This document shows positions 6,026 to 28,648 of a stretch of 32,000 nucleotides of DNA, one piece after another (position 1 is the first letter of the stretch; every line of letters starts with the position of its first letter). The stretch is from positions 1 to 32,000 of the forward strand of contig CP006913.1 in the NCBI GenBank assembly GCA_000503875.1. Reading direction: 5' to 3'. The translations under genes and the position numbers were made by a program. This stretch comes from Candidatus Saccharimonadota bacterium. Lineage in GTDB: Bacteria > Patescibacteriota > Gracilibacteria > Absconditabacterales > Absconditicoccaceae. The notes below the pieces were generated by a model. It did no database searches, was not told where the DNA came from, and saw nothing but the letters and a program-made list of their open reading frames with translations.

Positions 6026-9000
6026 TTATGCGGCAGGGGTTTGGGTTTCCTCTTGTTCTTCTTGTTCTTGTTTCATCTTAGCTTTTACTGCAAAAACAAC
6101 AACAATACCAATAAATCCTACAACAAGAATTCACAAAACGATAAAGATAATTTTGAGCCAGTTTGTTGATTGTGTCCCTGTTTCCAAAGGAACATTATCT
6201 GGTACAGATTTGATATCTGTTGTACTACAAAGTGAACTTGGAATAGAATAAATATTCATAATAGTACAAATATTTGGAAGTACAATAGTATCCATATCAG
6301 TTTTATCTATTTGTGTATTTGTTGGTGTTGATCAATCCGGAGCAACATTTTTACTAATAACATTAATGATCTTTTGGAGAGATTCTTTTCTCTTGTCTTG
6401 TTGACTAATACCCAAAGAAGCATCACCTACAATAGTTTCAAATTCTTTAAATAAACCATCAACATCTATTGCTAGATTTGTAGGAAGAATAGAGAGAATA
6501 TCTTGTTTTGCAATACCGTATTCTCCAAGTCATTCTGCTGCTGCAGTTGATCTATTAGAAAGTTCCAAAAATATTTTTTTGAGCATATCGTCTTGTTTTT
6601 CATCGAGTTTGATGGTGTTTCTTCCAAGATAATCTTTGAGTGAAACCACTGTCGAAAGAGTTGATGATTTGTCAGAAATATTATCTCTAAGTCCTTTCAA
6701 CATATCTTTGAATACTTTATTCGTTCCTGTAAACCACTCTGGTCCACCAAGTTCTTTTATCAAAACAGTAATTTGATCATATACTTTTTTATCTTCTGCA
6801 TTTAATGCAACTTCAAAATCAATAAATCAGATAGTGAAATCTTCAGAAACCAATTTTTTATTTCTATCTGAATAATAAAGTCTTCATATACTACTATCAT
6901 ATTTAGCTTCGTATTTTTGGAGATACAATTCATTACATTGAGAATCAGCATCATCCAAAGGATTACCATTACCATTACTATCTTCATTGACGTCTATATC
7001 TATATAACAAGGTCCAAGATTTTCGTTATGTTTGATATAAAAAAGAATAGTATTATCCAAATTATTACCTACAAAAAGTTCTATACCACTACTAGTAACT
7101 GTTGCTTCAGGAATAGATAAAAATTCATAATTTTTGGTGCTTGATCAAGTTTCTGTAGTTATGATTAGTCTTTTTTTTGCTTCATTAGCGTGTTGATCAG
7201 CTAAATCAATTGACGCAAAGTATTTTCCTGGTCCAGGATATATATAAGAAAATGCTGATCCTGTAGCTATTGCATTTGCATCAGTACAAGTTTTGGCATC
7301 TGGACAAATTCTTTTTTGTGCAATATCTCCAAGACTTACATCTCTAAATATAACAAAATTTCCCGCTACATCAAAAAGTAATCTTGGTTTTAAACCATTT
7401 CTGACGATAATATTTCCTCCATTAGAAACTCATCTGTATCATCTATAGAGTACAGAAGCTCTTGGTTTAAATCCACTAGTATCACTAGGTTTTGTATAAG
7501 CATATGTTACACGATCTTTTTTTGTTACTAGATCCCAAGTTCAATCTCCATCAAAATCATAATAAAGAGTTCTTTCTTTGACAAAATCTGGTCTGTCAGA
7601 AATCACTTTTGAAACAATATCAAAGGTAACTTCATCTCCAACTTCAACAGCAGAACTACTCATTCTAAGTGTTACCAAAGGTACATCTGGTCTAGATGAA
7701 TCAGGTGGGAAAAAGACGATAGGTCAATTTCCGATAATATCTTGACTAGATTTTTTTCCCTCGTCGTTGTCGTACATCATTACACCAAAAGAGTATTCAC
7801 CAGGAATTTTTGGCAATGAAAAGAATGCATATGGAATATCTCCTGGAGTAATTTTTGTTTCAATAAATCTTGTTGGATCATCTTTGAGATAATAATACCA
7901 TTTATAGTATGATATAAATCAATCAGGATCTATAGAATTGGTCGCACTAACTTTTACAATCAATGGATCAAAATTGCTATTGAAAATATCTCTTACTTGA
8001 TTTTCGTTGAATCCAACGCCAATTTCATTTCCATATTGAGGGAAAAAGAGAACGATATTGTCTAATTTTGGCAAAGAATTTACCACACGAAACCAAATTC
8101 TTGTTACATTATTTTTGCCAATAGAAGTATCTTCAGCAGTCAGATCAACATAGTTACAACCTAGTTCATCGAATTTGTAAGTGAACGTTGTTTGTTTGTA
8201 AATTTCCTTGTTCTTTGGTTGAAAATAAAATTGTAAATCTGATTTTTCTCCTTTTGTATTAACAGATATTAATGGATTAATTACTATTTCTTGATATCTA
8301 TCGATTTGATAAGCGGGGTATTCTGCAATTCCTCAACTTACGGTAAGATCGGCTTCTTTGCAGGCTTCATTTTGGGTAAGGATAATATTTGTTTTATCAT
8401 AAACTTCATAAGCAGCTATTGGATAATCTTTTTCTCCCACAAAAACCGTTTTGATAATTTCATTGTAAGTTTCATTTGCTCCACTTACCTTTAATTTTAC
8501 AATATAAATACCAGTCTTTTTATAAAGGTGGGTAATGGTATCTGCTTGAATAGTTCTTTGATCACCATCAGCAAAATTCCAATCATAAGCAAATATTGGT
8601 TGGTTTGTTGTGACAGTAAATGTCATTGGATTTCCCCATGACATAGCAATAGGCGAAACAGAAATTTCTGGTCTAAGTATAGATTTTATTTCTATATCTT
8701 TTTCCAATTCTCCCATTTTTCCATACTGATCTTTTACAATAAGTTTATATTTAAATTTTCCAATACTGTTAAATTCTGCAACAATTTTTCCATTATTATC
8801 TTCGGTAGAAACAATGTTTACTTTGGCTGCCTCTGGGAAAATCCATTCATAACTCAATGTATCTATACCATTTGTTTTGTCTACATCAGAACTAATAGTT
8901 GCATCAATAAGAAATTTAGAAGGGTTGAGCCATTCACTTGATGGAGTAACAGTAAATTGAGGAATAGGGTCAGTTGATTCTACATATACTTGGATAGTAT

Positions 9001-10282
9001 CAATATTGGTCTGCCCAAGATCGTCTTCGACAGTAAGTTTGATAGTATAGAAGCCAGGTTTTTTAAACTGTTGTTTAATATCTTTGCCTTGATACGTTTC
9101 TAATTTATTTCCGTTTTGATCAAAGATTTCCCAAGTATAAAGTTTTAATGAAGAAACAACAGAATAAGAAGGGCTTCCATCAAAAAGAAATACGGTTGAT
9201 GTTGTTCCATCTTCTGGTTGTTGTTTGATTACCGCAACAGGATCCGATGCAATTAAATCAAATTTTTCTGAAGTAATATTGTTTTCATTATCAGTTACGC
9301 TCAATGAAACCTTATATTCTCATCTTCAAGGAAGAGAAACTCTAATTAAATCTGGTTTGTTTTCGCTAGTTTTGATATATTTAAATCAATCGCTTGAAGT
9401 GATTTGTCGAGTATGAGAAAGGATTTGTCTTCATCCCATAGCAATAGTAGAAGTAGCATCTAATACTACACCTTTTTCAGCTTCCAAGGTTCCAATCTTT
9501 ACTTTACCATTTTTGTCCATTTTTTGTCAGTTAGCATGGACAGAAATAACTGCTGATTTTGGCGCAACATCAATAGATATTGTTTGATCTCCATCCAAAA
9601 TTCCTTTTGCTTTATTGGAGCTTCTTACCGTAAGATGTACAATATAATTTCCTTCCTTTTCAAATGTATACGTAAGGACAGGACCATTTCCTATAATTTG
9701 ATCAATACCATTGATATCTCTATAATACCAGAAAAAATTTCTTGAAGGAATTGTTTCATTTGATGGATCAGTACTTTCTCTTCAATCAAATGTTACAGTC
9801 AAAGGAGCAGCCCCCAATCTTGGTGACGCAGTAGCCTTGGGATAAGCAGTAAATTGTGTATTAATTTTTTTGAGCACATCAGTAAATGGTTTATAACAAT
9901 TTGACATAAATGACGCAAAAAGAGATCTATAATTAGGGTCATTAGAAGAAATTGTTCCCAATTGATTTGCTAATAAAGAACATTGTTGATATGTTACTTT
10001 AAATGAATATTCCTGCGGTAATTTTGGAAAAAGAGCTGTAAAATGTTGATTAAGTTCTTTAAATTTATCTGGATGAATACTATTTCCAAGTTTTGTATAC
10101 GCATCAATTTCCACGAAAATTCCTAGGGTTTTTTCCCAAGAAGTTTTGATTTCATAGTTAGCAATATATTCGTTGGGAACAGCTGCTTTTGTGGTTTCTT
10201 TAAGTGTCAAGAAGGAAATTCCGAGGAGAGAAAAGATTCCCACAAAGAGTATAATTCCAAGATGATGGCGATAGTTCTTCAT
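6026..10282 (-). CDS. giant PKD-repeat cell-surface protein with N-terminal signal/anchor and C-terminal TM anchor (1418 aa)
   Basis: Track ORFs 9782..10282, 8333..9304 and 6530..6763 are all in one frame. I checked every codon between them and found only TGA, no TAA/TAG. N-terminus is MKNYRHHLGIILFVGIFSLLGISFLTL (hydrophobic). Several PKD-like modules are present, e.g. FDGSPSY...YTWEIFDQNGN...GFYTIKLTVEDDLGQT and YDWNFADGD...GIYIVKLKV. C-terminus is WLKIIFIVLGILVVGFIGIVVVFAV followed by KAKMKQEQEEQEETQTPAA, then TAA. Confidence 0.8.
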
Positions 10283-11937: not shown

Positions 11938-14900
11938 TTATGAAGTAACAAGCGCTCAAGCTAGATTATTTGCTGTTTGTTGAGTTGTTTGTTGGACTGT
12001 TGTAGATGCCGGTTTATATATAGCAAGATCCAAACTATTAATAAATGTATTTAATGTATCTTTGTCTATAGTAGTGGATAGAATTTCAGATAAAGATTTT
12101 GTTTTTTCTAACCAAGATGTTCGACCATTAAGGTCAAGTAATTCATCATTAAGTTTAGTATTTTCTAATTTAGCTGTTGCTTTATCATTTTGTGCAGTAT
12201 TTTTTTTACTATTAGCCAGTTTTAATTTTGAAGGATCTCAAGATCATTTTACCCCTGGTGTTGGTGAATATGCTGAAATTTCACTTTCTGCTTCATTAAT
12301 ATCCGTTTGAGCGTTAATTATTAAATTTTGTTGGTAAGCTTTTGATTTAGTATTTGTTTTATCTGTATCAAGTATATCTTTGATTTTTTCTTTAGCTATT
12401 GTTAAGAATCATTTTGTGCTATTATCGATAAGATCAATAATTTCAGATAATATTCTTTTTATATCAGCATCTTTTTTAATAGGATCTTTAAGAAGAGGTA
12501 GGAGTGATTCAAATTTGATTTTAATTTGGCTAATCATTCAATCTTTTGTTTGAATTTGGCTGAGTTTAGAGAAAAAATAATCTTGATTATTATCATTATT
12601 TTCTTCAATAGCTTTCGTTATTCTTTTTTGAATATTTGATTTTTCTTCTTCAATACCTTTTTGAAGATCTTGAAGTTGTTCTTTTAACTTTTTAATAATA
12701 TTTTTACCTGCTTTGATTTCTGGACAATCTTCTTCTGGTTTATCAACCGGTAAAATTCTACCATCATCATCAAAGAGTTTGGGTCAGATATTTTTTAGAT
12801 TGAGTACATTTTCTAGTCCTCCACTTGCCATCAAATCTTTCCATCGGTCTTCTTTTTGTCAAGCATCATAGAGAGCTCACAAGACATTTCTTTGACTAGC
12901 TACAGTATATTTATCTTGCATCCATTGTCATGAATCCGCCACAGTTTTACCAAAGAATTCGGTAATTGATCAAATTCCTCTAGTAAGCCATTGAAAAAGA
13001 TATTTAGTTTTTTTCTCTTCTCATTCTTTTACAGGCAAAGCTTCTGTTCATACTTTATATCAGTTAGAAAGTACATCAGTAATAGCTGTTCTTTCTCCAT
13101 CTTTTCCTGTTTTGATTCATTTACTCAAAGGATTCAAAAGCCATTGCATAGGTTTAGTGGCAATCATTCCAAGTTTAATAGGGTTCCAATTTGATTGTTT
13201 ACCCATCCACTCATTTATCTTCTCTAGAGGAGTATTAATAATGTTTGCTCATTTTTGAACCGTCCAAGCGGCAGCGCCTACAGCTCATTTTACTGTGGTT
13301 TCCGTTGCTTTCAAAGCAAGATTGGTTGCAGGAGCAAATTTATCTCTCACTGCCTGTCTTCATTTTTCAGCACCAGCAACTTTTTTGAATATTTTTGAAT
13401 ATCGTTTTGGTTTTACTTCAAAAGGATCTTTTTCTTCATAAAATAATTTGTTATTTGCTTCATTTTGAAACATAATAGTCATAGCAATAATACTTGCATC
13501 ATCAGCATGTTCTATTTGTCTATCAATCCAATTAAAGATTCCTCTTTGGTCTCATTTTAATGCGTGGCGAGCCCAATCTACAATAATTTTAGGATATGAT
13601 CCTCTTCTAATTCTATCACTACTTCTCAAAGCGGGAACTCTTCTTCTTAGGATTGCAGCCAAGATACTTCTCATTTTATCAAAATGAAGCGCATTTCTAT
13701 CAGCAGGATTTTCTCCTTCTACATGGTTATAGTTATCATCAGGACTATTAAAAAACAAGTTTGGAAATTTTGTAAAATAACTATTCATACGATCAAAATC
13801 AGCATCATCAGCAAAATCTCGGTCTCTACTAGCTGCACCACGTAATGCTACATTTCTATCATATACTTCAAAAATTTTATTTCTCATCATTCATCTTCGT
13901 GAGTTACAATCTTCTTCATATTTTTTCTTTTCGCCACCAAATGCTTCAGATTTTTTCTTAGTCAGAAGGCTATGTGCTCAATGAGTAAGTTCAAAGGTTA
14001 CCCAAGAGAGAAACCAATGATCAAAATCATTTTCTATTCCTATTGCAGATATTACTTCAGTAAATTTTGTTGATCATTTAATTGTTTTTAGTAATTCCAT
14101 AGGAGTTCAATGTTCAGTGTTTTTATCAAAATTTTCTTCTTTATTAAAGTCTACTATACGATCTTCAATTATTTTTCTAAGTTCCAATTTATCCATGACT
14201 TCTTCCAATTGTTTTTTCTGTTTAGGAGTAATCATAGATTTATCCGTATTTTTTGCTGTTTCATGCACCATCTGCAAAGTGTTAGTCAGATGTTTATATG
14301 CTTTATCTACAGATTTTAATTTTTCAATATGTCTTTCGAATCAATTAATCGTTTTCCCATTTTTATCTTTTTCTCCATTTCCAGAAAATTCTTTGAGAAT
14401 ATCATCAGGAATCACGACACCCATAGCAGAAAGCTGAGCTAGCACCTCATTAAGTTTAATGATTTTTTGAGCATCAGACTCAAAAGTAAAATGACTGCTT
14501 TCTGCCAATATATCAAATCATTGATCACTACAAAGTTTTTTTACTTTGTTTGCAAAAGTATTTAATTTAGCTCTTTCAGCTGTATCTAAATTACAAGAAA
14601 ATCTATTTATAGCTGCATGACGAAGAATCCATGATTCAGTAAATTCTTGTTTAGTTAAGAGATTTTCTTCAACATCTTGAATAACTTCATCAAGTCTTTT
14701 TTTCAATGTTTCTTCGACGATTCCATGAGGATTTATATGAGGAAGAATTTTTTCATCAACAATAACATCATTTGGATTAGCTGGATAAAGTGTATGTGTA
14801 TGTTCTATAGCAACAGCATAAGCAATTTTATCTTTGATACTCATTAATTGTCTAAGAGTTGTCCATTGATATCACAATGTTGAATTAAGTCCTCTTATTC

Positions 14901-15075
14901 TATTATCTAAAAAATTATCTATTTGATCTCTAAGATAAAAAGAGCCTTCTCCAGCTTCCAATAGAGAGAACATCTCATCCGATATTTTAGAAGACAGTGA
15001 ATTGTTTGTATCCATTGCTTTTCTAGCTATGTTTTGAGATTGCTTTAGATAATCTTCTGCTTGTGTGCTTGTCAT
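11938..15075 (-). CDS. large hypothetical protein (1045 aa), last gene of a four-gene ORFan operon
   Basis: Track ORFs 14872..15093, 14518..14844 and 13552..13890 share one frame. I checked all codons from 11941 to 15075 and found only TGA interruptions. ATG at 15073-15075 (MTSTQAEDYLKQ...), TAA at 11938-11940. I recognise no family, signal peptide or TM segment. Confidence 0.7.
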
Positions 15076-15101
15076 AATAGATAATATAAACAATAAAACG
15101 A

Positions 15102-18539: not shown

Positions 18540-21146
18540 ATGGGCTGGTTAGATATATTTGGATGAGATGATACAGGGAAAAAAAACACTTGATCTGAGA
18601 AAGGTACTACTTCTCCTGTTGAAAAAAATAAAGATACACAAAAAAAGAAAGAAGAAATAGAAAAAGAACTAGAAAAAGAACTACAAAAACAAGCAAATAT
18701 AAAAAAACAAGCAAACATACAAAAACACAGAGAATTAAATAAAGCTATAAATGAAGTATACAAGGGTACAAAAAAAATAGAAATCAAATCTATAAAAGAA
18801 ATAGATCAATTAAATCCAGAAGAAAAAAGAGAACTTATTAAAGCAATAAAAGGGAAAAGAAATGAAATCATACAAGAACTTAGTTTTGAAGAGAAAAAAA
18901 CTGTAATTGAGAAGATATCAAACAATTCATGATTATCTCCAGATGATAAACTCCAATTAGCTGATTTAGTCCTTTCTTTGACCGAAAAACAACAATGGAT
19001 AAGGGATCTTCTAAAAGATAAAAATCTTTCAAAAGAGAATAGAAAAAGTAAAATAGAATGATTTTTTAAAGTATATGAATTAGTGAATTCTATGCCTCCT
19101 TATCAACGACAAAATGAATCAACAAGAAATCTTTTTGCAAAAAAAGCTGGGATAGTTGACTATAAAGAATTACGTGAACAAAACGAGAAAATAAGAGAAT
19201 GGATATTAAAGGTTATGTTGGAAATAGGTGATTTATATACATCAGGAGCCGATGTTTTAGATAAAAATCATGATAATCGATTAAAGGAAATCATAGTGAC
19301 TTCAGATAAACAATTAGCAATAGGAGATGCTTTAAGCGCTCTTTCAATCGGACAGAGAGAAAAAATAAATATGTTGACGAAAGAACAATTTCAAGATTTT
19401 ATTAATGAATTAAATAATATAGGCTCTAAAAATGCACAAAAACTTGAAGAAAAGTTTTGAGTAGAGAAAGATGCACAGAATATCTTTTGATTAAATCTTG
19501 AAATGAGTGTTATTCAGAAAAAACTTGATAATATAAAAATCCAATTTGAATCAGCTTGATGAAATCCTGCAATCACAGACCAAGATCGTAAGATCTACTG
19601 TGATAAATTTCAAATGTCTTATCCAAAAACGGCAAAAGAAACATTAGCTATAGATGTTGGTATATTAGAAGAAAAAATCAACCAATCAGATATTGATCCA
19701 ATAAAAAAAGAAGAATTAATAAAACAAGTAAATACAGTAAAAACAGATATCTATACTACGTATTCAAAATACAATCGTACAGAAGAATTAAAACAGATTC
19801 GATGACCTACGTACTATGCAAAAGTAGAACAACGTTATTTTCAACAACAAACACAAGTTGCTGAAAAATATCAAGAATGAAAAACAGGAAAAGATCTTCG
19901 TAAAATAGGTAAAAAGCTTAGTAGACAAAAAGAGTTTACAGATTTTTTCGATAAAAATAAAATAGAACATGATGATTTACAATGATCGTTTTCTCAAGAA
20001 GAATATGAGAATATTTTATTAAAAGAAAAATGAGATATAAAAGATGAAGACAAAGATAAAATTCAACAACAACAGGAAAAAGATTTATTAGATACCGCAA
20101 ATACAAAAATAAAAGATCGTTTTGTTGAGAGGGTAACATATTTTTTATGAAGTGTTCTTGATATCCAAATGGATAAAGATGGTAAAGAAAATATACTCAA
20201 AGGACTTGATATTGATGAAAAGAATATCGATAAAAATGTAATTACTATTCAAGGAAAATATCAAAATAAAAAGTTAACATTTATATATAATATTCAGACG
20301 TGAGATCTATTTACAGGAAAGTGGTTGCATGGAGCAAAAAACAATCCTCAAATAAGTATAGGTCAAAAAATGGAAAAACTTAATACGGTTTCAGGACCAA
20401 CTTTTTGAGAACATTTCAAGCAGGCAAAAACTATTTCTTATACTGATGCCATCCAAAAATCAGAATGAAATATTTCTACTTTTGAAAAAAATATAAACAA
20501 TCAATTAATTATAAAATGTCCTTTACCAGAACAATCAGATGCTTTTAGGGAAGAAATGAAACTTAATAACCTAAAAAATATTGCAGCTCAAGAAATATTT
20601 GAAATGATGTGATTAGAAAATAGACAATGGCCTGTATCATGAATAGACGGTTCTCAATATCATATATTTCCATTGTTAGCAAGAAGTCTTGATACTTATA
20701 CAAAAGATCAACTACTTCAAATAAGATCCATTATACAATGAATGAACGATTTTTATCGTAATCAAAAACAAGTAGATAATATAACTACAGAAAAAGCTTC
20801 TATAGATCCAAAATTAAATGAACTTGAAAAAGATACAAAAGATAACAGATATAAGCCATTAAAAAATATAACAAAAAAGCTCTTTTTACTTAGAGAGAAA
20901 GAACATATTAATTCAACATATATGGGAGAACAGTTTGCTTCATTTTTTGATTCTCTTCTATCTGATAGACCAGAATCTAGTGATGGACAAAAAATTATTG
21001 ATCCAGAAAAATTATATACGTATTATGAAGATCTGCAGCAAACAGAAAACAAATCTATCAACAAAGAATATTTTGCAAATCTTCAGGAAAATATGTCTCA
21101 ATATTTTGCAGAAACAGATCTTGATAAAAATTTACAAATAGCATAA
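18540..21146 (+). CDS. large hypothetical Lys/Glu-rich protein (868 aa)
   Basis: ATG at 18540. Track ORFs 19083..19460, 19614..19805 and 20742..21146 are all in this frame. I checked every codon from 18540 to 21146 and found only TGA interruptions. Ends with TAA. No recognisable family, signal peptide or TM segment. Confidence 0.7.
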
Positions 21147-24555: not shown

Positions 24556-24583
24556 GTCCTTAAAATTTAATTATATAGTAGAG

Positions 24584-24610
24584 AACCTCTTTCGTAGAGG
24601 TTTTTTATTT
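24584..24610 (+). terminator. rho-independent terminator
   Basis: AACCTCT-ttcgt-AGAGGTT followed by a T-run. It lies 29 nt after the DUF3127 stop and overlaps the TAA of the convergent glycosyltransferase gene. Confidence 0.6.
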
Positions 24611-25765
24611 TTGTAAAAAATGTTCCAAACAGAAAATTTTGTTTTTAGAAATTTGATGAGATTTATGAAGAATATCTACAAGAAATGGAGAGGGAACAAG
24701 ATGCTTATCAATAGTAGAAAGTTTTCTTTTTAAAAGATTTAAAGATATAAATTTTCCTACAACAAAAATAGAAGTAGTTATAGCTCTTTGTTTTGCCATA
24801 GATAGGAAACTAAAGAATGTGAGAGGCGTTTTTATCTGTTGTTCATAAAGAAGTTTTTTGGGAAATGGGAAAAAATATCAAAAATCATGGTACATCATCC
24901 ATCTTTCCTTAGCGAAAAAACCACCAACCCAAACGGACATTCGCCCCAATCGTCTCAATGTGCTATTATACCAAATAATATCTGGCTGCCATTTTTTACA
25001 AAATCTCCATAAACGAAAAGCATCAATAAAATTGAATGCTCCCCATCAGATTCCAAAAAGTTTTTTCACGGTTCATTTCCATCATTTTGGTAGTTCTCTT
25101 CATCGGATTTTTACTTCATATCCATGGCTTTCCAATAATTCCTTAACATCATGAATATAGGTTTCAATACCTCCTACTTTATTTATAAAGTCACTTACGA
25201 GCAGTATTTTTTTATGTTTACCAAGCAGAGGATAAATAGTAGTAATCCAATTCTCTTTACTATATTTTTCTAGAGAAATAGTTGGTTTAGTTGTTTTTTT
25301 CTTGGCCGTTAAAAGCTCTGATACACAATTGAATAATTTTTCATCAGTACAAATTCCTTCGTAATTTTCTAAATTATGATCTTCTTCTATAAAAGGTACC
25401 AAGCCTCATTTTTTATATCAGATAACCGGTAATCCTCGAGAAATAGCAGTCAATGCTGTCAATCAAAACGTTTCCAGAAATGTAGATGGCATCAAACAAT
25501 ATTCACAATTTTCTACGTATCTTTGGATTTCTGGTAATTTTTTCCATCCAAAAAAATGAATATTTTTGCTTTCATTAGCCAACTCCAAAAGCTCATTTTC
25601 ATAACTTCCTGCACCAAAAATAAACAAAGAGAATGGTAATTCTCCATTGTGCAAAAACATACGAAGCATTCCCAAAATTGCATCGAATCCTTTTTCTTTT
25701 TCCAATCTTCCAAAATATAAGAATCCTTTCATAATTTGCGTAAAATTTATAAAGTTATTTTCCAT
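24605..25765 (-). CDS. GT-B (GT4/GT1-like) glycosyltransferase with permuted domain order (386 aa)
   Basis: One continuous code-25 ORF, ATG 25763-25765 to TAA 24605-24607, all codons checked. Track ORFs 25463..25765, 25100..25402 and 24605..24799 share this frame. The first half carries C-terminal-domain motifs: FLYFGRLEKEKG, LFIFGAGSYE, LMPSTFLETFGLTALTAISRGLPVI. The second half starts like a GT4 N-terminus: KKILLVSDFINKVGGIETYIHDVKELLESHGYEV...QPDIIWYNS. Confidence 0.7.
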
Positions 25766-26370
25766 AAAATTTTTTTATCATAACTCCTTAATCAAATAGT
25801 ATCTATGATGATTTCTTTCGGTAATTTTGTTTTTATATATTCAATAGCTTCGTTTGCCTTTTGAGGAAGTGTATAATTACAAAGGTTTAAATGGTTTGCT
25901 ATATGGTCTATCATGCCTTTGGTTTGTATATTTTTTTGTTTAATTGTTTTTATGCGTTTAACTAGTTCTTCTGTATCATCGACGTTCAATTGTTTTTGAA
26001 TTAATACAAGCTTTTTTGCCAGTTCCTTTAGAGGTGTTTTTTCAAAAAACAAAGCAATTCGATGAGATCAATTTGGATATTTCTTTTGTAATTTTTTATC
26101 GTTTTTTACTCGATCTTGATATTCATTAACCAAGTTGCTACAAGACAATATAAATGGTTCACAAGATATTTTTTCTTTTCTAATTTTTTGTTGTAACAGA
26201 TTAATTTCTTTCTTTTCTAATAATGTTTGAGTTAATGTAATGTGTATGTCATTTTCATTATTTTTGTTCTCATATCTAAATCAATTCATATACAAATAAT
26301 TCTGAATTTCATTTAATATTTTCAAACTTTTATTTTCTGGTAGTGCTACAATTCGATAGACTTCTTTCAT
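25747..26370 (-). CDS. possible 2H phosphoesterase (LigT-like) family protein (207 aa)
   Basis: ATG at 26368-26370. It reads through TGAs to TAA at 25747-25749 and overlaps the next gene's start by 19 nt. HITL is at residues 43-46. A second, degenerate H-x-N-x motif (HLNL) is at residue 160, with beta-strand-like hydrophobic patterning around both. The family call is tentative. Confidence 0.45.
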
Positions 26371-27093: not shown

Positions 27094-27720
27094 TTAAAGT
27101 CCTTTAGCAATATACTGAACAACTCTAATTATAGAATAAGAACACACAACGAGAAGCAACCCAATAAATGAATTTTTAAGTCCTGCTTTTGCTTTTGTTG
27201 GATCTTTGCCTGTTGCTCACGCAAATACAAACATTAATCCTGAAACAATAATAGCAATAGTTACAACCGTTCATATAAAGAAGGTAGCAGACAACAAAAT
27301 GTCTTGAACAAATAATTCTGGAGAGCTATTATCAGCTATACTTTTTCTAATACCTAGAAATTCATAGATATTAAAACTACATTGCCCATTAAGAAGACAT
27401 GTTTCATTCATTCTGATTCATTGAACCGCAGCGGCTCCTTTACTTGAAGACATATCACATTTCCAATCTATATAATCTCGTAATCATCCATTTTCTTTAC
27501 ATGTATCTACAAGTTTAACATCTTCATCAGTAATTTCTCTTTTTGTGGCTGTTTCAGTTTTTTTTGAGGCAGCTTCTTTCGCTGCAGAGCTACCCACAAT
27601 TCATGGTATATTATCAAATGTTTCTCAACCATATTCATCTAAATTACCAGCGGCATTAATAAAAGAAAAATTATTTAATAACATTCCTCCCAAAATCAGA
27701 ATTCCAAGTATTTTTTTCAT
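27094..27720 (-). CDS. secreted TrbC/VirB2-like (T4SS-pilin-type) protein (208 aa)
   Basis: Signal peptide MKKILGILILGGMLLNNFSFINA. The middle region has four Cys. The C-terminus has two TM helices flanking a short basic loop: TVVTIAIIVSGLMFVFAGATGKDPTKAKAGLKNSFIGLLLVVCSYSII. That layout is characteristic of the pilin-like family abundant in candidate phyla radiation genomes. All codons checked, ends with TAA. The trmD start is 18 nt downstream. Confidence 0.55.
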
Positions 27721-27849
27721 ATACATATATAAGGTAGAAAAATAAAATCAGATTCTTAAATTCGTTTTTTATACATATTTTATATTTTATTGCAAACAAA
27801 ATCTTTTTCATTAGGTATATAAGGTATCTATTATTTATTATCTAGTATT

Positions 27850-28247: not shown

Positions 28248-28324
28248 GGGCATATAGCTCAGTTGGTTAGAGCGCGTCTCTGATAAGGACGAGGTCGGTG
28301 GTTCGAGTCCACCTATGCCCACCA
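28248..28324 (+). tRNA. tRNA-Ile (anticodon GAT), CCA encoded
   Basis: Cloverleaf folded by hand. Acceptor GGGCATA/TATGCCC, D arm GCTC..GAGC, anticodon stem CGTCT/GGACG with loop CTGATAA, T arm GGTGG-TTCGAGT-CCACC, discriminator A plus CCA. Confidence 0.9.
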
Positions 28325-28343
28325 ATTATTACGTTAAAGATTA

Positions 28344-28418
28344 GCCAGAGTAGCTCAGTGGTAGAGCAGAGGCCTGAAAAGCCTTGTGTCGGCAGTTCAA
28401 TTCTGCCCTCTGGCACCA
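28344..28418 (+). tRNA. tRNA-Phe (anticodon GAA), CCA encoded
   Basis: Acceptor GCCAGAG/CTCTGGC, anticodon stem GAGGC/GCCTT with loop CTGAAAA, T arm GGCAG-TTCAATT-CTGCC, discriminator A plus CCA. Confidence 0.9.
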
Positions 28419-28428
28419 CTTATTATCT

Positions 28429-28502
28429 CGGGGATTAGCTCAGATGGCTAGAGTGCCTGGTTTGGGACCAGGAGGTCGCGAGTTCGAGTCCCGCATCCCC
28501 GA
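28429..28502 (+). tRNA. tRNA-Pro (anticodon TGG), CCA not encoded
   Basis: Acceptor CGGGGAT/ATCCCCG, anticodon stem CCTGG/CCAGG with loop TTTGGGA, T arm GCGAG-TTCGAGT-CCCGC with one A-C mismatch. The downstream sequence is aaatg, not CCA. Confidence 0.85.
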
Positions 28503-28648
28503 AATGTCTACGTTTGTCTATTGCTGTGATGTTGCTAGTACAATGATCTGCTTGCAGATTAATTACCGGCGAACCACGTTTCGAAAACAATGATGTGCTC
28601 AAAATCAAGGAGCGATCATAGGTTACGAGACAGAACTTTTTTTTACAA
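28503..28648 (+). ncRNA. candidate structured spacer RNA between tRNA-Pro and tuf
   Basis: About 140 nt with clearly higher GC than other intergenic DNA here. The ends can pair (tgtct...agaca). Internal hairpins are at 28543-28562 (tgatctg-cttg-cagatta) and about 28591-28618. It ends in T8 (28637-28644). I recognise no known RNA family. Confidence 0.25.

Follow-up and report, generated by a model that had tools for sequence, protein, structure and literature searches.

A conserved bacterial GT4-type glycosyltransferase family with its two domains in circularly permuted order

The GT-B fold is one of the two large glycosyltransferase folds. Its catalysis depends on two Rossmann domains closing about a hinge, and these domains are connected both through a linker and through a C-terminal helix that crosses back. 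Fusions of the GT-B proteins Alg13 and Alg14 in which the domains occur in reverse order have been described in Entamoeba histolytica and Dictyostelium discoideum (PMC8993221, citing Bickel 2005 and Averbeck 2007), and for these amoebozoan proteins an origin by gene splitting, followed by re-fusion in inverted order, has been proposed (PMC8993221). Here we describe a gene on the minus strand of a 32,000-nt stretch of bacterial DNA (positions 1 to 32,000 of contig CP006913.1, referred to below as the window, to which all coordinates refer unless a locus is named) whose product carries the two domains of a glycosyltransferase family 4 (GT4) enzyme in the opposite of the conventional order. An earlier note on this DNA had proposed a circularly permuted GT4 enzyme, and this is the reading to which the Pfam domain order, in-silico rotation of the protein in both BLAST and profile-profile alignments, and the placement of the new termini, one on each side of the interdomain linker of conventional enzymes, all point. 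We regard it as nearly certain that the gene encodes a genuine, conserved, circularly permuted GT4.

Domain order and the rotation test

The positions of two Pfam matches, Glycos_transf_1 (PF00534; residues 15-130, E 1.3e-15, 57.8 bits, gathering cut-off 26.4) and Glyco_transf_4 (PF13439; residues 197-268, E 1.2e-7, 32.4 bits, gathering cut-off 28.5), place the donor-type domain ahead of the acceptor-type domain. The canonical GT4 order, acceptor domain and then donor domain, is therefore replaced by C then N, as the earlier note had proposed on inspection of the Rossmann halves, and N-domain homology is found where that note had put it, in residues ~180-386. The helix that in conventional enzymes returns from the C-terminus is kept, leading now directly into strand 1 of the N-domain. 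The former C- and N-termini are linked at the tetrapeptide GKHK (Table 1), close to the position 25214-25228 at which a GKH junction had previously been estimated. Over 244 members the length of the junction has a median of 4 residues and a range of 0-43, reaching ~70 in the protein P0209, and variability of this sort would be the expectation for old termini that have been joined. At the new C-terminus H371 is found in 256 of 271 members, and the tail beyond the N-domain has a median length of 0 residues. Profiles of the two halves match no other open reading frame (ORF) of the window, in keeping with the previous statement that no N-domain lies upstream and no C-domain downstream.

A natural circular permutant is by definition one for which homologues of the other order exist and for which rotation turns two high-scoring segment pairs (HSPs) into one, and both properties are found here. 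A sister subfamily with conventional N-then-C order, from code-25 bacteria, comprises about 25 clusters of 407-425 amino acids (aa; P0240, P0249 and P0270-P0291; loci L072:8001-9233, L073:8001-9224 and L074:4317-5540), and a dedicated search yielded 24 clusters of this kind. P0240 and P0249 had first surfaced in the profile search of cluster representatives described below, with the N-domain motifs of the family at their N-termini and the donor domain after them; the motifs common to the N-domains of the permuted family and the conventional subfamily are SDF/Y..GGIETY, YHDLGYF, VPSxFM and PHF. When the native protein is compared with P0240 by BLAST two swapped HSPs result (q175-373/s2-194, E 2.7e-19, and q7-108/s215-347, E 1.5e-10), whereas the protein rotated in silico such that the N-half comes first gives one colinear HSP (q3-310/s2-347, E 1.8e-31). 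The same behavior is seen with hhalign: a single alignment of 358 columns (1-369 / 3-411; E 1.6e-67, score 484) connects the rotated family to the conventional subfamily, while in native order the N-half alone is aligned, over 203 columns and with a score of 316. Searches of PDB sequences, single-sequence and profile, with native and rotated queries, detected the donor domain alone, the N-type domain being too divergent in that comparison for colinearity to be judged.

The ends of the permuted proteins can be placed with some precision on the conventional ones. In the conventional relatives ..LPHF (PNF in most) is followed by a linker of ~20 residues and then by xFGR(L/I)xxEK; in P0240 the linker after H/N-F reads VFDSDISNRINKFQDKVNLI, and SFGR follows. 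Members of the permuted family end in ..HFxQE and start with M-x-G-x-L-Y-F-G-R-L. Because these ends match the two sides of the conventional linker, the cut sits exactly within the interdomain linker, with the conventional termini joined, and the suggestion in the earlier note that the end and the start of the ORF would join as in a conventional GT4 is borne out.

Reading frame, family and predicted structure

Positions 24605-25765 (-) form a single open frame of 386 codons and a TAA stop under translation table 25. The uninterrupted 386-aa ORF that had been claimed under code 25 is confirmed in this way, on the minus strand, which had gone unstated. Under table 11 the same stretch is in pieces, as there are 8 in-frame TGA codons. 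Seven of the 8 fall on columns that are G or W in all or nearly all of 120 aligned homologues, W at these columns being the result of databases having rendered TGA as Trp, and this supports both the reading of TGA as Gly and an intact gene; the remaining one encodes residue 240, where the alignment is variable (I/F/W/G/A). Sense TGA is also required by other long ORFs of the window, such as a 1418-aa ORF with 18 TGA codons and groEL with 4. A tRNA-Gly(UCA), which would support code 25 directly, is not present in the window. Long ORFs at 6026-10282, 11938-15093 and 18540-21146, for example, contain 18, 25 and 19 in-frame TGA codons, respectively, and the window as a whole needs code 25. Many database homologues have W at conserved Gly columns, that is, they were translated by code 4 and not code 25.

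Homologues begin at the equivalent of M12 (25732), some of them, for example at loci L001 and L003, without an upstream ATG, and the 11 additional residues that would result from the alternative in-frame ATG present here (25763-25765) show no conservation. Judging from this comparison the true start is probably M12, which gives a protein of 375 aa. With the start at M12 the 19-nt overlap with the upstream gene that had been described becomes a 14-nt gap.

In order to describe the family we have made use of three collections. Among 5.8 billion proteins searched there were 494 homologues, and the 120 top-scoring ones are 351-440 aa in length with 89-99% query coverage and 39-100% identity; the closest relative bearing a name, at 78% identity, comes from a 'Candidatus Absconditabacteria' genome, and the public labels of the homologues are 'glycosyltransferase' or 'hypothetical protein' only. 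When a profile was run against 1.84 billion representatives of 50%-identity clusters, 215 of them matched at E<=1e-30, nearly all full-length and colinear. Finally, 71 loci were obtained by scanning a single genome for each GTDB species; they were translated with code 25 and scored by separate profiles of the two halves, and their labels include SR1, Absconditabacteria, Gracilibacteria, 'Peribacteria' and Patescibacteria. The comparison of orthologs that the earlier note had recommended has a clear outcome: the C-then-N order recurs in one code-25 ORF at ~62 of the 71 species-level loci, and 280 of the 329 proteins collected are permuted.

An AlphaFold2 model of the full-length protein, calculated with the 120-sequence alignment, has a predicted local distance difference test (pLDDT) value of 92.3 and a predicted template modeling (pTM) score of 0.87. 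It predicts two Rossmann domains in one compact monomer, with a first Rossmann domain at residues 3-142, a helix at 159-170 and a strand at 175-182 that opens the second Rossmann domain. Sequential Foldseek comparison of the full model aligns one domain, over 145-186 columns with TMq 0.30-0.38, to the C-domains of GT4/GT5 enzymes (sucrose-phosphate synthase, the Pyrococcus glycogen synthase C-domain, MshA, BGluT, WaaB and PimA), and profile matches in the PDB are likewise to GT4/GT5 C-domains. For the predicted fold, a sequential match to one domain only is what would be expected of a permutant. A separate model, extending from the returning helix to the C-terminus, has a pLDDT of 86.7, and the helix is at 88-92 without the C-domain. 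Since the helix stays confident when the C-domain is omitted, the model suggests that its packing partner is the second domain, the arrangement of a canonical GT-B. Modeled by itself, the N-half matches GT-B enzymes, mostly GT4, with TMq 0.50-0.54 and weak E values of 1e-3 to 1e-2, the best matches being BshA, MshA, a Rickettsia GT4, PglA, WaaB and BA1558.

Active site, alternative readings and gene neighborhood

Conservation of the active-site motifs (Table 1) was counted over the 271 full-length permuted members, R9 and K14 being gapped in 8. E190, in the motif GGIE, and H282 are invariant, D181 is found in 270 of 271 members, K327 in 267, and D283 is D in 265, with the same His-Asp motif present in the conventional-order relatives. 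Position 187 is G or W (TGA as Trp) in 266 of 271, and position 188 in 271 of 271. The lack of any variation at R9, K14, S83, E87, F89, E190 and H282, together with the near-invariance of D181, K327 and H371, indicates an active site that is predicted to be a working one.

The option of a functional permutant, one of several raised in the earlier note, is the best fit, and we consider it quite likely that sequence and models are explained in full by a GT4-type permutant that is catalytically active and has an intramolecular GT-B cleft. The chain would start at strand 1 of the donor domain, pass through the normally C-terminal helix, cross GKHK into strand 1 of the acceptor domain and end at HFLQK. 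Nucleotide sugar would be bound by the first domain (GRLxxEKG, PSxxExFG) and acceptor by the second (GG loop, HD loop), with sugar transfer, probably retaining, in the cleft between them. The domains would be tied by one crossover instead of two, leading to altered hinge opening and closing. A role in building the envelope is also proposed, in which the basic second domain would dock on the anionic membrane, or else on an acceptor that is anionic and either lipid-linked or teichoic-acid-like. The net charge of the N-type domain is +20 here (family median +17), compared with +2 for the donor domain. MurG, PimA, WaaG and glycolipid synthases are peripheral-membrane GT-B enzymes, and because the second domain is so basic it may, by analogy with these, dock on a membrane or an anionic acceptor; the protein is probably membrane-associated.

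Several observations weigh against this explanation or parts of it. The EX7E motif of the donor domain has two Glu residues eight positions apart, and the second, a ribose ligand in characterized GT4s by analogy, is Thr here (family position 95; N 104, E 80, T 56 and D 22 in the family). Distant permuted members keep this Glu, but since it is replaced in the present protein and occurs in only 30% of the permuted family, donor binding may differ or activity be reduced. None of the NCBIfam models of GT4 subfamilies (WaaB, BshA, GlgA, GtfA, MGlcDAG synthase, GlcNAc-PG synthase and others) reaches its cut-off; the best match, to WaaB, has 46 bits vs a cut-off of 385, and all matches are to the donor domain only, in native and rotated sequences alike, so that no subfamily or substrate can be assigned. 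Glycan or lipid genes were not found in the neighborhoods of the 71 loci, which offer no clue to a pathway. The argument for the membrane is the charge, and the helices tested are not strikingly amphipathic.

Relatives that consist of one half only bear on the origin of the permutation, which is proposed to have arisen once in the lineage, either through fission with later re-fusion of the halves or through a duplication followed by deletion. ORFs of ~200 aa that encode a stand-alone N-half, with the stop directly after ..PHF.., are found in seven species-level genomes (Table 1). No donor half was found within +-6 kb of them, and a relaxed search for donor-domain remnants was also empty; they could be part of a split enzyme, degenerate genes or genes of independent function. 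A rough unrooted neighbor-joining tree of N-domains distributes them over at least three clades, including one beside the conventional subfamily, and is compatible with conventional order either as ancestral or as a reversion. The two half-profiles identified no N-C-N-C protein among the 329 collected. Because stand-alone N-halves exist and N-C-N-C proteins are absent from this set, a route by fission and re-fusion is no less plausible than one by duplication and deletion. The origin given in the earlier note, tandem duplication with loss of the outer halves, is by the same two observations neither supported nor excluded, while the permuted arrangement that it was to explain stands.

An unlikely alternative, although the one that survives best, is that the protein is a pseudo-glycosyltransferase, either without catalysis or put to another use, such as a scaffold that binds a sugar nucleotide or polymer. 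It would account for a second EX7E Glu that is Thr here and not conserved in its clade, for the failure to reach the cut-off of any curated enzyme family, and for stand-alone N-halves in some genomes, where the half may serve a separate function. Yet the Arg and Lys of GRLxxEKG, the first Glu and FG, the GG loop and the HD loop are invariant or nearly so over 271 members, which is hard to explain without catalysis, and there are several GT4 and GT5 enzymes that remain active with the second Glu changed. Slightly less probable again is a domain-swapped homodimer, or pairing in trans with a half-protein, the cleft then being intermolecular as in split Alg13/Alg14. The sole tie between the domains is one short crossover of 4 residues, and the stand-alone N-half genes, in at least three clades, imply that the halves can be separate proteins. 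AlphaFold, however, places both domains in one compact monomer (at the pTM given above), the window contains no partner half-gene, and the two conventional termini of a GT-B enzyme are near neighbors on its N-domain, which makes a short linker sufficient for an intramolecular fold. That the ORF is an artefact of assembly or gene calling, in which misassembly or use of the wrong code would have combined the 3' half of one GT4 gene with the 5' half of a second, is so improbable that we exclude this option of the earlier note: metagenome-assembled genomes can be chimeric and the ORF exists solely with TGA as sense, but the same architecture, junction and ends occur in ~62 independent species-level genomes with unrelated flanks and in ~280 clusters, with identities as low as 28-40%, from assemblies of NCBI, JGI, ENA and Logan, and the placement of seven of the 8 TGA codons on G/W columns and the need for sense TGA in many other long ORFs of the window argue for the code. 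This recurrence also rules out misassembly at ~25220 or 25770 in particular. Two adjacent gene fragments were considered as well and rejected. We retain the functional permutant as the preferred explanation.

The gene upstream of the glycosyltransferase is a 207-aa ORF (25747-26370, -), followed further upstream by trmD, while the convergent gene downstream encodes a DUF3127 protein. A previous '2H-like' label for the 207-aa ORF is unconfirmed, with no Pfam match at E<=0.01. Synteny downstream of trmD is kept in 35 loci, and the conserved neighbors over the 71 loci are trmD, a membrane protein resembling a type IV secretion system (T4SS) pilin, a PD-(D/E)XK-like protein and RNase J, the latter in 10 loci. 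In the window the pilin-like protein is a 210-aa ORF (27094-27726, -) with a signal peptide, two C-terminal hydrophobic helices and a weak T4SS_pilin match (E 0.004), and it is kept near trmD and the glycosyltransferase in 22 related loci. The PD-(D/E)XK-like neighbor is an ORF of ~350 aa with a C-terminal Cys cluster, located downstream of the glycosyltransferase on the opposite strand at L029:6061-7116 and 18 other loci; by sequence alone it is judged PD-(D/E)XK/Cas4-like. The conventional genes of L073 and L074 lie downstream of a class A penicillin-binding protein gene and a 212-aa ORF. A hairpin between the DUF3127 gene (+) and the glycosyltransferase (-) overlaps the stop codon of the latter and is followed by a T-run. 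It is probably a terminator; a consensus terminator scan did not call it, the consensus promoter/terminator scan being uninformative. A cluster of tRNA-Ile(GAU), tRNA-Phe(GAA) and tRNA-Pro(UGG) genes (28248-28503, +) lies directly upstream of tuf.

Table 1. Positions of the glycosyltransferase gene, its domains and motifs, the adjoining hairpin, and stand-alone N-half genes of related genomes
Feature	Position	Strand	Basis or remark
Glycosyltransferase coding sequence, 375 aa from M12 plus stop (probable start)	24605..25732	-	code-25 translation; homologue starts
Donor-binding Rossmann domain, normally C-terminal, first here; terminal helix included	25223..25732	-	PF00534; PDB profile and Foldseek matches; AlphaFold2 strand/helix pattern
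GRLEKEKG motif, putative nucleotide-phosphate-binding Arg/Lys loop by GT4 analogy	25688..25711	-	R9 and K14 in 263/263 aligned members
PSTFLETFG, first half of EX7E	25463..25489	-	S83, E87 and F89 invariant in 271 members
Helix KENWITTIYPLL, conventional C-terminal helix crossing back onto the N-domain	25223..25258	-	DSSP H159-170, then E175-182
Junction GKHK, linker from former C-terminus to former N-terminus	25211..25222	-	family-wide length comparison
Acceptor-side Rossmann domain, normally N-terminal, second here; strongly basic	24608..25210	-	PF13439; half-model structure matches; charge
SDFINKVGGIETY, strand 1 and Gly-Gly loop of N-type domain	25157..25195	-	family conservation
MMYHDFGYFFPFP, conserved His-Asp loop of N-type domain	24860..24898	-	family conservation
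New C-terminus HFLQK	24608..24622	-	family alignment; alignment to conventional subfamily
Hairpin between convergent DUF3127 gene (+) and glycosyltransferase (-)	24577..24608		minimum free energy -15.7 kcal/mol, z -5.15
Stand-alone N-half	L061:472-1110
Stand-alone N-half	L063:5737-6648
Stand-alone N-half	L064:524-1126
Stand-alone N-half	L065:5983-6540		runs off contig end
Stand-alone N-half	L066:5971-6612
Stand-alone N-half	L067:2589-3335
Stand-alone N-half	L068:2923-3600

Relation to known glycosyltransferases

In the full-text literature searched, whose coverage is incomplete such that an earlier description is possible, neither a permuted GT4 nor this family was found to be described, in agreement with the earlier note, which knew of no permuted GT4; matches for 'permuted' concerned GH70, methods sections and unrelated proteins. 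With somewhat better than even confidence we view the family as the first recognized natural circular permutation of a GT4 (GT-B) enzyme, one that is syntenically fixed across Absconditabacteria/Gracilibacteria with conventional and stand-alone-half relatives surviving, and for which the halves are separable modules and the linker is dispensable for catalysis. Conventional, split and permuted forms would then constitute a natural series, and a large natural family with a cut linker and fused termini would imply that one tether suffices. Such a family, having conventional and split relatives as controls, would be a ready-made system for studies of domain motion and for designing glycosyltransferases in permuted or split form. 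The family also draws attention to a conserved and putatively envelope-related enzyme in the host-dependent, poorly understood code-25 Absconditabacteria, and illustrates that tools that depend on order, such as the full-length NCBIfam models and sequential structure search, see half of the protein. Given the reverse-order precedent of Alg13-Alg14, the finding does not by itself open what is a long-standing question.

With conventional GT4 enzymes (BshA, MshA, PimA, WaaB/WaaG and archaeal glycogen synthase) the protein shares both Pfam domains, GRLxxEKG, PSxxExFG, the GG loop and the His loop, but it differs from them in its reversed order, in the absence of an interdomain linker, in the fusion of the old termini by ~4 residues and in the missing second Glu of EX7E. 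The conventional sister subfamily is closer, with the same N-domain motifs, a homologous donor domain and end-to-end alignment once the protein is rotated. Its members are set apart by N-then-C order, the ~20-residue linker, a large insertion in the donor domain, retention of the second EX7E Glu in 19 of 20 aligned members and genes that do not adjoin trmD. Like the split GT-B enzymes (Alg13/Alg14 and the bacterial EpsE/EpsF and Cps14F/G), the permuted family has stand-alone half genes, whereas the gene of the window encodes a single fused polypeptide and the stand-alone N-halves have no C-half within the distance searched.

Membership of the Alg13/14 family was considered and rejected, there being no match to Glyco_tran_28_C or to the Alg14 Pfam family even at E<=10. 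The reverse Alg13-Alg14 fusions nevertheless resemble the present protein in having the GT-B fold, in placing the donor half ahead of the acceptor/membrane half in one polypeptide and in the existence of split forms in the family. They are, however, eukaryotic inverting UDP-GlcNAc transferases of the GT1/GT28-like MurG/Alg13/14 lineage, while the protein of the window is GT4-type and bacterial and belongs to a large, lineage-wide family.

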